A stretch of 64,000 nt of DNA, taken from assembly GCA_004298675.1 (NCBI GenBank), contig SCRI01000080.1, forward strand, positions 6,961 through 70,960. The letters are read 5' to 3'. Both the position numbers and the translations under genes were made by a program. A model generated the notes under the pieces. It did not search any database. It was not told the origin of the DNA and worked only from the letters and a program-made list of their open reading frames with translations. Below, in pieces: positions 4,336 to 51,158 of the stretch (positions are counted from its first letter, which is position 1; each line of letters starts with the position of its first letter). Source of the stretch: a bacterium (GTDB lineage: Bacteria; Vulcanimicrobiota; Vulcanimicrobiia; Vulcanimicrobiales; SCRA01).

Positions 4336-5772
4336 ATGAAGTATCAGGAATACGACGTGGCCGTCGTGGGAGCCGGCATGGGCGGCGTGGCCGCGGCCAC
4401 CACGGCCGCCGAGCGCGGCGCGCGGGTGGCGCTGATCGAGCGTGGAGCCATCGGCGGCACCTGAATGAACGTGGGGTGCATCCCCACCAAGGCCCTGGTC
4501 AGGGTCGCCGAGTTGATTCACCTGGCACGCCGTCCGCGCAACGCCGAGCTTGGGTTCACCGTCGCGGGCGTCGACGTCGATTTTCCGCGCGTGATCGCAC
4601 GTAAGGACGAAGTAGTCGCAGACGTCGTCGGCCGCCTCACGCGTTCGCTGGAGAGTACCGAGCAGCTCGAGCTGGTGCGGGGCCAGGCGCGTTTCGTCGA
4701 CCGCCGGACCCTTGCGATCGACGGCGAGTGCCGCCTCACCGCGGGGGCCGTGATCCTCGCCTCGGGCTCGCGGCCGGCGCGGCCCACCATCCCCGGTGCC
4801 GAGGAAACGGGCTACCTCACCAATGCCTCGATCATGGCGTTGGCGCACCTTCCGCGCCGGCTCGTCGTCGTCGGCGCGGGGCCGGTGGGTATGGAGTTCG
4901 CGCAGATGTTCGCGCGCTTCGGCAGCCAGGTGACGGTGCTGTTCCGCAGCGAGTGCGTTCTGCCGCACGGGGATCCCGACATCGGCAAAGCGCTGACCGA
5001 ATATCTCGCCCGCGAGGGCTTGGAGATGGTGCCGCACGCGCGAGTGCTGCGCATGGAGCGTACGGGCGCGCACGACGGCGCTGCGCCGCGTGCCGTCATC
5101 GCCGACGTAAACGGCGAGGAGCGGCGCTTCGCGGCGGACGAAGTACTGCTCGCCATCGGACGGGAGCCCAACGCGCAGGCACTGGATCTCGCACGCGCCG
5201 GCATTACCACCACAGCTGAAGGTTGGATCGAGGCCGACCCCACGCTGCGCACGAGTGTCGAGGGAATCTTCGCCGTTGGCGATGCCATCGGGCATGCGAG
5301 CGGAAGTGAACTCTACACGCACGTCGCGGTGGCCGAAGGCGGTATCGCGGCGCGCAACGCGACCGGAGCGGCCGGCGAGCGCTTCGACCCTACCGTCATC
5401 CCCGGCGCGGTCTTCACCGAGCCCGAGGTGGCCCATATCGGATATACCGAGGCGCAGGCACGTGTGGCGGGGCTCACGCCGGTCGTTGCCACGTATCCCT
5501 TCGCTAAGATCGGCCGCGCGCGCGCCATGGGCGAACGCGAGGGGCTGATCAAAGTGCTCACGGATGCGGACAGCGGACGCGTCCTGGGTGCGCATCTCTT
5601 CGGGCCCAACGCGGGCGAGCTCGTCCACGTGGTGGCGACGGCGATGGCGACGGAGAGCCGCTCGCCACAGCCCATCCTCGATGCCATCTTCATTCACCCG
5701 ACGCTGGCCGAGGGCGTGCAGTCGGCATTCGAAGAGCTGCTGAGCGCCATGCCCGCGCGCATGGCGCACTAG
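4336..5772 (+). CDS. class I flavoprotein (pyridine-nucleotide) disulfide oxidoreductase, Lpd/GR-like, with an in-frame TGA (candidate selenocysteine) at codon 43
   Basis: My translation from ATG 4336 is MKYQEYDVAVVGAGMGGVAAATTAAERGARVALIERGAIGGT-TGA-MNVGCIPTKALV..., in frame with ORF 4465..5772. The FAD GxGxxG motif lies upstream of the TGA. The TGA occupies the first Cys of the GGTC-x-NVGC-x-P-[ST]-K signature. The C-terminal HPTLAEG dyad is present. Confidence 0.7.
4471..4487 (+). promoter_or_regulatory. hairpin GTGGGG-TGCAT-CCCCAC 6 nt downstream of the in-frame TGA (candidate bacterial SECIS core)
   Basis: Six perfect base pairs (4471-4476 with 4482-4487) and a 5-nt loop containing G. 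It is built from GTG-GGG-TGC-ATC-CCC-ACC codons. Whether SelB would bind it cannot be judged by eye. Confidence 0.4.
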
Positions 5773-5779
5773 CGCGGCG

Positions 5780-6646
5780 CTATTCGTCGGCGACGATGGC
5801 GGCGCGCTGACCGCCTTGGTCTTCGTTGACGAGCGCGGTGCTGCAAATCAGCAGCGCCTGTCCGGCGCCCCACTGCTTGACCATGGCGCGATCCGCGAAG
5901 GCGATACGGTAGACCGAGCCGTCCGCGGTGTCGACCGTTGAGCCGTCGGGGGCCACGGCGTAGATCGCGCCCGGCGTGCAGGTGGTGCCGCCGCTCTCCG
6001 GCGGCGCAGCGGCACTCCGCAGCGCACGCGTCCGCATGGCCGCTGGCGGCGCGACCGTTGGCGGTGCGGCCGTGGGCGCGCGCACGGCAGGTACCGCCAC
6101 GGACGGTGCCGGCGCGGCGGCGCTCACGCCCTCAGAGGCCCGGCGCATCCAGGTCACGTTGCTCTGCAGCAGCAGCGGTTTGCCGTGCATGATCCCGTAC
6201 GTCCACGTGCGCGTGCCGCTAGGGCAGCAGAGGCGATCGTCGGCACGGTAGGCGGACGTCGCGATGCTGAGCCGGCCGCCGTCGATGCGCAGGCTGCGCA
6301 CGCCGCCGCTCAGCGTGATGTTGCTCATGAAGGCCGGCTGATCGCCCGCGACGCGAAAGACACCCACGTTCATCGCACCGGCGCGGCCGCCCGCACTCAG
6401 CGGCACCGCGACGACCATGGTGCGCTCCGGGCCGACGAAACCGGCGGCTGCGCGGTCGGCATCGACGCTCAATCCATCCTGCCGTTGCGGCAGGCGGTCT
6501 AGCGCGAGCGCAACCGGTAAGCCCGCCGCCGCCGTGTCGCGGTGCGCGCTGGGCGATGGCGCGGCGTGCTCTGAGGCGCTGCGCGGCGCGGCACAGCCTG
6601 CGGTGGTGAGCGCCAGCGTCAAGAGCAGGACCTCCCAGCCTCTCAT
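5780..6646 (-). CDS. lipoprotein of unknown function
   Basis: 288 aa. Signal peptide with a lipobox-like LTTAGC (MRGWEVLLLTLALTTAGCAAP), an Ala/Pro-rich linker and Cys-containing globular parts (DRLCCPSG). Confidence 0.65.
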   Translation of the reverse strand: MRGWEVLLLTLALTTAGCAAPRSASEHAAPSPSAHRDTAAAGLPVALALDRLPQRQDGLSVDADRAAAGFVGPERTMVVAVPLSAGGRAGAMNVGVFRVAGDQPAFMSNITLSGGVRSLRIDGGRLSIATSAYRADDRLCCPSGTRTWTYGIMHGKPLLLQSNVTWMRRASEGVSAAAPAPSVAVPAVRAPTAAPPTVAPPAAMRTRALRSAAAPPESGGTTCTPGAIYAVAPDGSTVDTADGSVYRIAFADRAMVKQWGAGQALLICSTALVNEDQGGQRAAIVADE

Positions 6647-20534: not shown

Positions 20535-20540
20535 GCCGGT

Positions 20541-20733
20541 ATCCTCGTTAGGCGAGGCGTCTACACGATGACATGCCGCTGCCCGGAAAGGTCGAGAGAC
20601 CCCAACGGGTGACCAGGCACCGCCGAATCAAGGCGTTACCTAATGCGGCTGAGGCCTTCGGGACTCTATAGCGTGTGGTGCTGAAGCTCGACGTTGAGGA
20701 AGAAGCCGGACCCGAATCCGGTCGATTTCTTGA
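20541..20733 (+). ncRNA. unclassified structured RNA (riboswitch-like leader, 3'UTR element or sRNA) ending at an intrinsic terminator
   Basis: Non-coding stretch with nested helices seen by eye: 20543-47/20553-57, 20561-67/20672-78 (encloses a multi-branch), 20575-79/20645-49, 20621-24/20632-35, 20651-56/20661-66 (UUCG loop) and 20706-10/20717-21. The strand is inferred from the downstream terminator. Confidence 0.35.
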
Positions 20734-21068: not shown

Positions 21069-22952
21069 GTGAAGAAGGTTATCGGGCTTCTGGCGCTGCT
21101 CTTCCTCTGCCTCACCGCAGCGGCATTGGCAGCGGATACGGTGGCGCCGGAAGCGCCGCCTTCGCCGCGGCCGGGGACGTTCGTACTGCACCTCGATCAG
21201 CGGATAGTGCTCATCGATCAAACGACGAGCGGCCCGGGCGTCACGCCGCCCGAAGGGTCCGGCTTCATCAACGGCTCACCGGCCTCGCCGCTGACGCCGT
21301 ACGATACGTTCTCGAGCGCGCCGCTGACGCCGGGCGTCGCCGGCGTCGCGCAGCTTCTGCTTGCGCCAACGTACGTGGGGCGCCGTTTCGACGTCGCCGC
21401 GACACTGGGCGCAGGCTACGTGCGCGGCAGCACGACCAACGCCGCCTACTGGAGTGGGGCGCTGCTGCCAGGCCTGAGCCCGCATCTGGGCGCGCAGGCG
21501 CTGCCGTACCGCGTCGTGTTTCCAACGCAGGCCGGGCAGGACGACGGCGCCGCCGCGCGCGCGTCGCTGCTCTCGTTCTCCGTCTCCGCACGCGACGGCA
21601 GTTTGGCGCTGCGCGGCGGCTGGTTCGATCTGCAGCAGACCGAGCGCTTTGTCTTCGCGCCCCCCGCGCTCACGAACGTGACGCCGGCCATCGGCCTCGC
21701 GACGACCGAATCGCTGGGCGGGGGAGCGCCAACGCTGGACTGGTGGACGCCGGATTCGCCGGCGCTTCCGCTGCACGGTGTCGATCTCGTTGCGCGCCAC
21801 GCGCTGGGGACGCTCGAGTTGACGGACGCAGCGCTGCCCGCGCTGCCCGGTACCTCGGCGCGCTTGACTGCGGCGTCACTGGTGATCGATCACGGCGAGG
21901 GAACGCGCTGGTCGGCGCAGATGGCGCACGTGGTGACGGGCGGCGATCTGGTGTCCACCACGGTCCTCTTCGGCGGCGACGCGCAACTGCTGCCGACGCC
22001 GCAGGGCAATCTCCCGTTGAGTCAAATCGGCGGCCAGCGCGAGAGCGTGTTCGGCGTGCGCGCAGCGTTCCACGTGGCGCGCGCTCTGAGCGGTGTGGTG
22101 GAGCTGGCGCGCTCGACCTACGCCGCCGATCACGTCGCACAACCTGGTACTGGGAAACCGGGCGGCTACGCCCATGCGGGCCTTGTGCACACGTTTGGGC
22201 GCGCGAGTCTGGCGCTGGACTGGTACCGGAACGAGCCCTACTATGCCACCGTCATCCTGCCGTACGGCGCGCCGGAGAACGTGTGGAGCGTGGCGTGGTC
22301 GTGGCCGGGGCAGTGGCTGAAGTCGAACTACCAGATGATCGACAACAGCGTGGCCAACGTCAACCGCCAAGGGTATCGCGTGGGGTACGCGCTCTCCGGT
22401 GGGCCGCTCGAGCTGGCGCTCTCGGCCGCGCGCTTCGCGCAGATCGATCCCATCACCACGGCCGCTGCCGCCACTACCGGATTCGTGGATGGCTTCTATC
22501 TGCCGCAGGACCCCGCGGCCGCGACGCTTGGGCGCCAGCAGCAGTTCGCGCTATGGGCGGCCTGGCACGCGCGCTTTGGCGACGTGACGCTCGATTACGT
22601 CGACGACACCATGCATCGCGCGGCAGTAGCGCGTGCCCCCGCGGACGCCGTTTCCTACGACGCGCCCGAGCTTGCGCTGACGCTAGCGCATCACTTCAAC
22701 GCACGCTTCTTGGCTGCGACGAGCCTGGCACGCTATGCCATGCGTGGCAGCTTCGCGCAAGGCGCCGCGACCAACGTGGACTTCGCGCAGCGCGTGGCCG
22801 TGGCGGGGCTGCAGTATCGCGAGGGCGCGCACACCGCCACGCTGGTGGAGTTCCGGCGCAGCGCGTTCGCGGGACTGCCGATCGCTGGCGGCGGGCTCTC
22901 ACCCAACTTCACGGGCAGCCTGCTGATCGTGGAGCAGCGGATCCGATATTAG
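21069..22952 (+). CDS. large secreted protein, probable outer-membrane beta-barrel
   Basis: 627 aa. Signal peptide MKKVIGLLALLFLCLTAAALA, alternating-hydrophobicity Gly/Ala/Tyr-rich sequence and a C-terminal aromatic residue (...LLIVEQRIRY), as in OMP insertion signals. Confidence 0.7.
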   Translation: MKKVIGLLALLFLCLTAAALAADTVAPEAPPSPRPGTFVLHLDQRIVLIDQTTSGPGVTPPEGSGFINGSPASPLTPYDTFSSAPLTPGVAGVAQLLLAPTYVGRRFDVAATLGAGYVRGSTTNAAYWSGALLPGLSPHLGAQALPYRVVFPTQAGQDDGAAARASLLSFSVSARDGSLALRGGWFDLQQTERFVFAPPALTNVTPAIGLATTESLGGGAPTLDWWTPDSPALPLHGVDLVARHALGTLELTDAALPALPGTSARLTAASLVIDHGEGTRWSAQMAHVVTGGDLVSTTVLFGGDAQLLPTPQGNLPLSQIGGQRESVFGVRAAFHVARALSGVVELARSTYAADHVAQPGTGKPGGYAHAGLVHTFGRASLALDWYRNEPYYATVILPYGAPENVWSVAWSWPGQWLKSNYQMIDNSVANVNRQGYRVGYALSGGPLELALSAARFAQIDPITTAAAATTGFVDGFYLPQDPAAATLGRQQQFALWAAWHARFGDVTLDYVDDTMHRAAVARAPADAVSYDAPELALTLAHHFNARFLAATSLARYAMRGSFAQGAATNVDFAQRVAVAGLQYREGAHTATLVEFRRSAFAGLPIAGGGLSPNFTGSLLIVEQRIRY

Positions 22953-32448: not shown

Positions 32449-32526
<78 letters not shown>

Positions 32527-51047: not shown

Positions 51048-51084
51048 TCCCCTCTCGTAGCCGGACCGCTCCGGGCCAGGCCTC

Positions 51085-51158
51085 TACCCCCGGTGGGATT
51101 CGAACCCACACTACGACGATTTTAAGTCGCCTCTCTCTACCGGTTGGAGTACGGGGGC
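51085..51158 (-). tRNA. atypical tRNA: anticodon UAA (Leu by anticodon), Leu-type D-arm, 5-nt variable loop, no encoded CCA
   Basis: The reverse complement is GCCCCCG-TA-CTC-CAACCGGTAGA-GAG-A-GGCGA-CTTAAAA-TCGTC-GTAGT-GTGGG-TTCGAAT-CCCAC-CGGGGGT-A, 74 nt. The T-arm is canonical, with U8, G18G19 and A73. G1 pairs with U72, and G28 with U42. Confidence 0.75.

Follow-up and report, generated by a model that had tools for sequence, protein, structure and literature searches.

What kind of gene is a tRNA-like sequence that combines a leucine anticodon with a variable loop of only five nucleotides? The question is raised by a short sequence (GCCCCCGTACTCCAACCGGTAGAGAGAGGCGACTTAAAATCGTCGTAGTGTGGGTTCGAATCCCACCGGGGGTA, read on the minus strand) within a 64-kb stretch of bacterial DNA that is referred to below as the window. 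The original prediction, which took every bacterial tRNA-Leu to be class II, offered two readings of this sequence: a pseudo-tRNA whose variable arm had been deleted, or a genuinely unusual (or reassigned) tRNA-Leu. The premise itself is out of date, since a type I tRNA-Leu(CAA) of Streptomyces coelicolor was studied biochemically in 2019 (PMC6614811).

ARAGORN identified a tRNA-Leu with anticodon taa at exactly positions 51085–51158, and the same sequence matched the Rfam tRNA model RF00005 over its full length (model positions 1–71 of 71), scoring 54.0 bits where the gathering score is 29 (E = 8e-9). Both results bear out the predicted 74-nt minus-strand cloverleaf (Table 1). The minimum free energy structure is also the cloverleaf (−28 kcal/mol, z = −1.75); 11 of 200 shuffled sequences fold equally well or better, and folding energy by itself is a modest to weak signal for this gene. 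The case beyond chance rests on the covariance-model score and the comparative data.

Table 1. Positions of the tRNA-Leu(UAA) gene, its parts and its flanks in the window, and of class-I tRNA-Leu(UAA) genes occupying the leuZ slot in other genomes
Feature	Position	Strand	Evidence or source
Type I (short variable loop) tRNA-Leu(UAA) gene, 74 nt	51085..51158	-	ARAGORN, Rfam RF00005, orthologues L007-L010
Leu-type D-arm: 3-bp stem, unpaired C13·A22, loop with A14, A15, G18G19, A20a	51133..51149	-	D-stem covariation; GGNAGA register
Anticodon UAA (tRNA positions 34-36), loop CUUAAAA	51122..51124	-	ARAGORN and Rfam; loop identical in all orthologues
Variable loop GUAGU, 5 nt (positions 44-48)	51110..51114	-	Alignment with E. 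coli leuZ
Small Lrp/AsnC ligand-binding-domain gene, 92 aa	51181..51459	-	Pfam PF01037; stop codon 22 nt upstream of tRNA
3' flank of tRNA, gene content variable between relatives	51048..51084		Comparison with L007, L008, L010
leuZ-slot loci	L047 384-670; L122 1262-1936; L067 1499-1655; L261 516-818		Rokubacteria/Methylomirabilia and deltaproteobacterial MAG

The structural details that had been predicted were all correct. The acceptor stem (GCCCCCG/CGGGGGU) includes a G1·U72 pair and is followed by discriminator base A73; a D-stem of 3 bp (CUC/GAG, comprising C10-G25, U11-A24 and C12-G23) closes an 11-nt D-loop (CAACCGGUAGA); the anticodon loop is CUUAAAA; and the T-arm (GUGGG-UUCGAAU-CCCAC) is canonical. 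The unpaired C13·A22 is the sole non-standard pair flagged in the RF00005 match. An A36-A37-A38 anticodon context, as found here, is typical of tRNAs that read U-starting codons. Only five nucleotides lie between the anticodon and T stems, as stated originally, corresponding to a 10-nt gap relative to the E. coli tRNA-Leu gene leuZ, and U48 within them makes an A15-U48 Levitt pair possible.

No CCA is encoded, the bases after the gene being GAGG, and this was correctly contrasted with the other tRNA of the window, an initiator tRNA-fMet (CAU; 32450–32526, minus strand). That tRNA displays a C1·A72 mismatch, its anticodon stem is closed by three G-C pairs, and its gene includes the CCA; the genome thus has tRNA genes both with and without CCA. 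ARAGORN finds only these two tRNAs in the 64 kb, and the tRNA-Leu(UAA) is therefore solitary. Elsewhere the window contains an M-box (Mg2+) riboswitch aptamer (20537–20705, plus strand; Rfam RF00380, 125.5 bits), with a 627-aa ORF downstream of it (21069–22952) that presumably encodes an Mg2+ transporter.

The neighbours of the tRNA-Leu are ordinary chromosomal genes. The lrp gene lies upstream, together with a divergent etfB/etfA pair, and genes for an alpha/beta-hydrolase, a Ppx/GppA protein, an RpiR-type regulator and a TPR protein lie downstream. GC content around the tRNA is uniform (63–70%), there are no phage genes nearby, and the gene is found neither inside a prophage or mobile element nor in a phage-linked tRNA array. 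Homologues of the window Lrp protein bear Candidatus Eremiobacterota names (Baltobacteraceae, Vulcanimicrobiaceae), and one entry at 100% identity derives from an NCBI MAG.

Orthologous loci were retrieved by means of this Lrp protein. Four of them (L007–L010, from related Candidatus Eremiobacterota, with Lrp identities of 82–91%) keep the order etfBA-lrp-tRNA, with a spacing of 2–12 nt between lrp and the tRNA. In their alignment the tRNA is invariant save for three changes, each of which preserves pairing: U72 is replaced by C, turning G1·U72 into G1-C72, and UC is replaced by CU at positions 42/43, swapping a G·U and a G-C pair within the anticodon stem. Both flanks, in turn, diverge right at the borders of the tRNA gene. 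One of the four tRNAs (that of L009) encodes CCA. We observed no broken pairs, no decay and no absence of the gene at these loci, and none of them has a long arm, which argues against the recent arm deletion that a full-length relative would have revealed. The gene is nevertheless not universal at the lrp locus: no tRNA was found near the lrp genes of more distant Eremiobacterota (L011–L020, 73–77% identity and different synteny). A consensus scan at the window tRNA found neither a promoter nor a terminator; lrp and the tRNA-Leu would probably form one co-transcription unit.

The gene has many counterparts outside this clade. A blastn comparison with phage genomes returned full-length matches, at 74–79% identity, to 73–75-nt genes annotated as tRNA-Leu in phages of Synechococcus, Myxococcus, Pseudomonas and Lactobacillus (Synechococcus phage S-CREM1, Myxococcus phage Mx1, Pseudomonas phage vB_PseuGesM_254 and Lactobacillus phage Bacchae); matches were also found in large actinobacterial replicons. 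We then scanned a collection of 185,579 species genomes, as well as IMG/VR, with a pattern describing the family and its UAA anticodon (GGYAGAG N8 YTTAAAA N9 TG NN GGTTCGANTCC). It matched at least 120 bacterial species in the first collection and at least 120 viral contigs in the second, and the uniqueness that had been presumed for the window gene does not hold. The bacterial matches listed belong mostly to Actinomycetota (Nocardia, Mycobacterium, Arthrobacter, Gordonia, Rhodococcus, Nonomuraea, Corynebacterium and others), and also include Planctomycetota, Rokubacteria/Methylomirabilia, Acidobacteria, Chthonomonadales (Armatimonadota-like), Verrucomicrobiales (Verrucomicrobiota), Myxococcales (Myxococcota) and cyanobacteria. 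ARAGORN calls a tRNA-Leu(UAA) of 73–77 nt for 119 of the 120 bacterial matches listed, and 108 of the 120 are the only tRNA in their own 8-kb block. The 120 viral loci listed usually hold sets of tRNAs (a mean of 4.4 per locus, with 31 of the 120 solitary), and these sets also include short Leu tRNAs whose anticodon is CAA, UAG or GAG.

The matches yielded 104 distinct family sequences, in which all four stems are 95–100% paired and several pair types occur per position. Four positions that the pattern does not fix (U8, C13, A14 and A15) are invariant, and A73, which is likewise not fixed by the pattern, is present in 102 of the 104. The C13·A22 mismatch is found in every member (104/104), A22 itself being fixed by the pattern. 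The short tRNA-Leu genes form a coherent family that is abundant in phages and, to judge from these scans, far more widespread than the literature states; our search for a broad description of class-I tRNA-Leu in bacteria or phages found only the Streptomyces paper (PMC6614811).

In one respect the window tRNA is atypical for this family. Position 10-25 is G10-C25 in 90 of the 104 distinct sequences and C-G in 1, and the window tRNA and its Eremiobacterota orthologues have a C10-G25 pair in the D-stem, with G10 lost and pairing kept. G10 is normally a site of modification and tertiary contacts in tRNA.

Class-I-length Leu tRNAs also occur as sets or arrays in some bacterial assemblies (L024 3550–3912, L091 and L119). 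Tandem genes with CAG, UAA and GAG anticodons are found in a Planctomycetota MAG and in a short contig binned as Parvularcula, and a 12-tRNA array in Moorena bouillonii includes short Leu(UAA) and Leu(UAG) genes; the arrays in these three assemblies may be phage-derived. In IMG/VR loci, ARAGORN additionally reported three ‘tRNA-Pyl’ with anticodon CUA (for example in L145), which are of amber-suppressor type and lie beside short tRNA-Leu genes on phage contigs.

Does this tRNA have the features by which a leucyl-tRNA synthetase (LeuRS) recognizes its substrates? We drew the list of recognition elements from two studies (PMC9976931 and PMC6614811). The E. coli enzyme needs A73, the A15-U48 Levitt pair, G18G19, A20a and tertiary contacts that join the D loop to the T loop, while the long variable arm is uncorrelated with leucylation, and armless variants stay active (PMC9976931). 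A73, U8-A14, A15-U48, G18G19, A20a and the D/T elbow are all present in the window tRNA, and all are invariant or nearly so in the 104 family members. The earlier expectation that A73 and the D-loop elements used by LeuRS had been kept is thereby extended to all known E. coli LeuRS determinants.

An attempt to assign the isotype by whole-body identity was dropped, as it did not discriminate between isotypes: across about 450 non-family tRNAs, identity to the window tRNA was 0.72 for Lys, Arg and Met tRNAs and 0.69 for leuZ, and Leu was not singled out. It was replaced by a test of D-arm register, defined as the position of the GGNAGA motif relative to the anticodon, on about 700 tRNAs from all fetched loci. 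A 17-nt register was found in 10 of 14 class II Leu tRNAs and, among the short Leu tRNAs, in 239 of 246; about 360 tRNAs for amino acids other than Leu contained no case of it. The UAA members had been chosen by a pattern that fixes this register, which does not apply to the class II Leu tRNAs, to short Leu tRNAs bearing another anticodon or to the remaining isotypes. Class-I members align collinearly with leuZ except for the clean 10-nt gap at the variable arm; a blastn search of the window tRNA against E. coli genomes gave no match. The window contains no LeuRS gene, and its 1057-aa ORF encodes an AcrB-type pump. Based on these features we infer that the tRNA carries leucine identity and would be charged by the LeuRS of its host.

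The codon that this tRNA would read is rare, as had been expected, and it is used. UUA accounts for 15 of 16,174 codons (0.93 per 1000) in the 47 high-GC3 ORFs of the window, and it occurs in housekeeping-type ORFs, including those for the AcrB-type pump, an acetyl-CoA synthetase and an ABC ATPase. In the alpha/beta-hydrolase gene, the UUA at residue 154 corresponds to CUG in the orthologue from L007, where the surrounding peptide is the same. The UUA in the pump gene falls on a conserved Leu of the YLFLQ motif that is common to MexB, AcrB and CmeB. Of the other two, the codon in the ABC ATPase aligns with Val (a hydrophobic residue) in homologues, and that in the acetyl-CoA synthetase is at a variable site, occupied by Gln in the fungal homologues shown. 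Judged by these alignments, UUA is shown to stand for Leu in this lineage, and nothing suggests a reassignment.

Gene order in other phyla bears on whether such a tRNA can act as a principal decoder. The E. coli glyW-cysT-leuZ cluster has the order Gly(GCC)-Cys(GCA)-Leu(UAA), in which leuZ is an 87-nt class II gene. Rokubacteria/Methylomirabilia MAGs have a Gly(GCC)-Cys(GCA)-Leu(UAA) cluster whose third member is a class-I tRNA-Leu(UAA), and in a deltaproteobacterial MAG such a gene follows Cys(GCA). This position suggests an in-situ replacement of the class II gene and shows that a class-I tRNA-Leu(UAA) can serve as the resident housekeeping decoder of UUA. Because UUA needs a tRNA with U34 and the window gene is under clear constraint, we incline to the view that UUA is decoded in its genome mainly or solely by this tRNA.

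We consider it quite probable that the locus encodes a functional, chromosomal type I tRNA-Leu(UAA) of a Candidatus Eremiobacterota member, which is charged by LeuRS and decodes UUA. This reading draws on the gene call and its fold, conservation under structural constraint in the orthologues, a covarying family, the presence of the LeuRS determinants and the meaning of UUA as Leu, and it agrees with the genuine tRNA-Leu with a class-I variable loop that was one of the original suggestions. The gene is presumably expressed. Its transcription would probably accompany that of the upstream lrp-like gene or follow shortly on it, processing would come next, and CCA would be added enzymatically because none is encoded. 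LeuRS would then attach leucine by way of A73, U8-A14, A15-U48, G18G19 and A20a in the Leu-type D-arm, a set of elements for which bacterial LeuRS would not require the long variable arm, and the charged tRNA would decode the rare UUA codon, plus UUG by wobble.

Several points weigh against this explanation. The Streptomyces type I tRNA-Leu is not charged by LeuRS from E. coli or from S. purpurogeneiscleroticus (PMC6614811), and charging would therefore depend on the host enzyme. A canonical class II tRNA-Leu(UAA) may coexist elsewhere in the genome and do most of the decoding. The atypical C10-G25 pair, the failure of whole-body identity to single out Leu and the lack of a tRNA at L011–L020 also count on this side.

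The alternative that survives best is that the gene is a functional accessory copy, acquired horizontally and ultimately from a phage or integrative element, that supplements a class II tRNA-Leu(UAA) located elsewhere; we regard this as unlikely, while giving it real weight. The abundance of the family in phages and the absence of the gene from the lrp loci of more distant Eremiobacterota are consistent with such an origin, as is the fact that, among the matches listed, the sequences closest to the window tRNA (85–89% identity) are from Actinomycetota and Chthonomonadales and not from a broad Eremiobacterota set. The window subtype is also rare in metagenomes, where a scan returned three contigs and no new Eremiobacterota context.

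The only one of these metagenome matches outside an Eremiobacterota context (L263 6805–6879; JAANMX010000017.1, a 164-kb contig) has a TPR/AAA-ATPase gene on one side and trpE/trpG on the other; its genome is of lower GC content and is probably related to the Chthonomonadales match L113.

The region on the 3' side of the tRNA is in addition probably an integration hotspot, with att-type use of the tRNA, given that the content downstream of it differs in every relative, a pattern usual for tRNA genes that act as integration sites. An intact 316-aa phage-type integrase is found directly 3' of the tRNA in L010 (4417–5367), a 49-aa remnant of an L010-type integrase (57% identity) is found in the same place in L008 (4460–4606), and L007 has a two-gene insertion (DUF1326 and PpoB2; 4503–5956) before the alpha/beta-hydrolase gene, which in the window abuts the tRNA. 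A tblastn search with the L010 integrase against 140 loci matched only L010 itself and the remnant in L008, and adjacency to an integrase of this type is therefore not a general trait of the family. The tRNA gene, however, belongs to the conserved etfBA-lrp-tRNA side of the locus and is outside the variable segment. It is solitary, its GC content is normal and phage genes are not nearby; its strict conservation with pair-preserving changes, and the class-I form in the housekeeping leuZ position of other phyla, also speak against an accessory copy.

It is very improbable that the main role of the tRNA is non-translational, whether as an attachment site for integrative elements or as a bldA-like regulatory tRNA that gates a few UUA-containing genes. 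The integrase and its remnant, the variable downstream content and the great rarity of UUA would be compatible with such a role, and the bldA tRNA of Streptomyces is a precedent for regulation via tRNA-Leu(UAA) (PMC6614811). Attachment-site use, however, exploits functional tRNAs and does not replace translation; no att-type repeat of the tRNA 3' end was found within the 64-kb window, and UUA is present in ordinary housekeeping genes, not in a restricted regulon.

We give hardly any credence to a recoding or mischarged tRNA, in which a class-I body would carry another amino acid (such as Phe or Lys) and UUA/UUG would be reassigned or ambiguous. Its class-I length and a similarity of its body to Lys, Arg, Met and Phe tRNAs (0.69–0.72) that is as high as that to leuZ could be read in this way, and A35, A36 and A73 are common to tRNA-Phe, where they are recognized by PheRS. 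Against it, the D-arm register is exclusive to Leu tRNAs among the roughly 700 tested, none of the LeuRS determinants is missing, leucine is accepted by the related type I tRNA of Streptomyces, and the equivalence of UUA with CUG-Leu in the orthologue and with the conserved Leu in AcrB homologues leaves the reassignment that had been suggested without support. No more credible, and largely refuted, is a class II tRNA-Leu that recently lost its variable arm and with it its function: the clean 10-nt gap that is its main difference from leuZ, the unencoded CCA and the lack of a promoter consensus might fit, but all four orthologous loci have the short form, every substitution keeps its base pair, the Rfam score is well above threshold, and at least 240 independent members in bacteria and phages show strong covariation.

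For annotation, the consequence is that the window gene is almost certainly a working tRNA-Leu, and neither a pseudogene flag nor one for codon reassignment is warranted. The spread of type I tRNA-Leu is, more generally, understated both by textbooks, in which bacterial tRNA-Leu is class II without exception, and by the 2019 view of it as a rarity of some Streptomyces. The findings bear on the way LeuRS recognizes its tRNAs in different bacteria, on automated isotype checks in which a long arm is expected, and on efforts to design orthogonal Leu tRNA/LeuRS pairs. A bolder proposal, which we rate as rather doubtful, is that type I tRNA-Leu constitutes one phage-circulating lineage that has repeatedly replaced the chromosomal class II gene, in some phyla in situ within glyW-cysT-leuZ, and is the sole UUA decoder in this Eremiobacterota clade. 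The invariant core of such a lineage would be C13·A22, A14, A15-U48, GGYAGAG and, in the T-arm, G49 with GGUUCGA after it; our search pattern itself fixed several of these positions. If the proposal were true, a LeuRS adapted to an arm-less tRNA-Leu would be implied for this clade. Speculatively, loss of the arm might protect phages, and hosts that capture the gene, from nucleases whose target is the class II variable arm; for Septu, cleavage of the tRNA-Tyr variable loop is reported (PMC13096335).

Among known systems, E. coli leuZ resembles the window tRNA in its anticodon, A-rich loop, G1·U72 pair, A73 and GCCC acceptor start, and in a 3-bp D-stem with an 11-nt loop (xAAYYGGUAGA) that aligns collinearly. 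The two differ in that the window tRNA is missing the long arm, has C13·A22 in place of G13·A22 and has the T-loop UUCGAAU in place of UUCAAGU. Canonical class II tRNAs have a variable arm of 13–17 nt, and the window tRNA has no variable stem-loop of more than 10 nt. The short tRNA-Leu of the phages named above share its D-arm, T-arm and 5-nt variable loop; the phage copies usually occur in tRNA sets, also with CAA, UAG and GAG anticodons, whereas the window copy is solitary, chromosomal and syntenic in relatives. Animal mitochondrial tRNA-Leu(UUR) is also type I with anticodon UAA, and is recognized through A73 and A14 without a long arm (PMC9976931). It is, however, organellar and structurally relaxed and has its own LeuRS (it is not charged by the S. 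coelicolor enzyme, ScoLeuRS; PMC6614811).

The closest precedent is the type I tRNA-Leu(CAA) of S. coelicolor, a single tRNA with a 5-nt variable loop that exists beside four type II isoacceptors (Fan, Huang, Ji & Wang, NAR 2019, PMC6614811). In that work, the single ScoLeuRS, which serves this tRNA, was found to leucylate both types in vitro, with a kcat/Km of 6.25 s-1 uM-1 for type I against 14.2 s-1 uM-1 for type II, or about half. The type I tRNA was no substrate for E. coli LeuRS, and the leucine-specific domain proved important at its C-terminus (the region around L732/G733 in ScoLeuRS); deletion of two or more nucleotides from its variable loop abolished charging; and C74, not A73, was critical for ScoLeuRS. 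Type I tRNA-Leu was viewed there as exceptional among bacteria, and phages were unmentioned (PMC6614811). Like the window tRNA, the S. coelicolor tRNA has a Leu anticodon, a 5-nt loop, A73, U8-A14 and G18G19. A CAA member from Nonomuraea (L005) aligns within the window tRNA family, and it is through this sequence that the S. coelicolor tRNA would also be placed in it. The two differ in anticodon (UAA against CAA, the UAA isoacceptor of S. coelicolor, bldA, being class II), at position 48 (U48 against the C48 reported for S. coelicolor) and in phylum (Eremiobacterota against Actinomycetota). With its Leu anticodon, 5-nt loop, LeuRS elements and Leu-type D-arm, the window tRNA belongs to the known type I kind, and what is new relative to the Streptomyces example is its anticodon (UAA, for the bldA-type codon) and its phylum.
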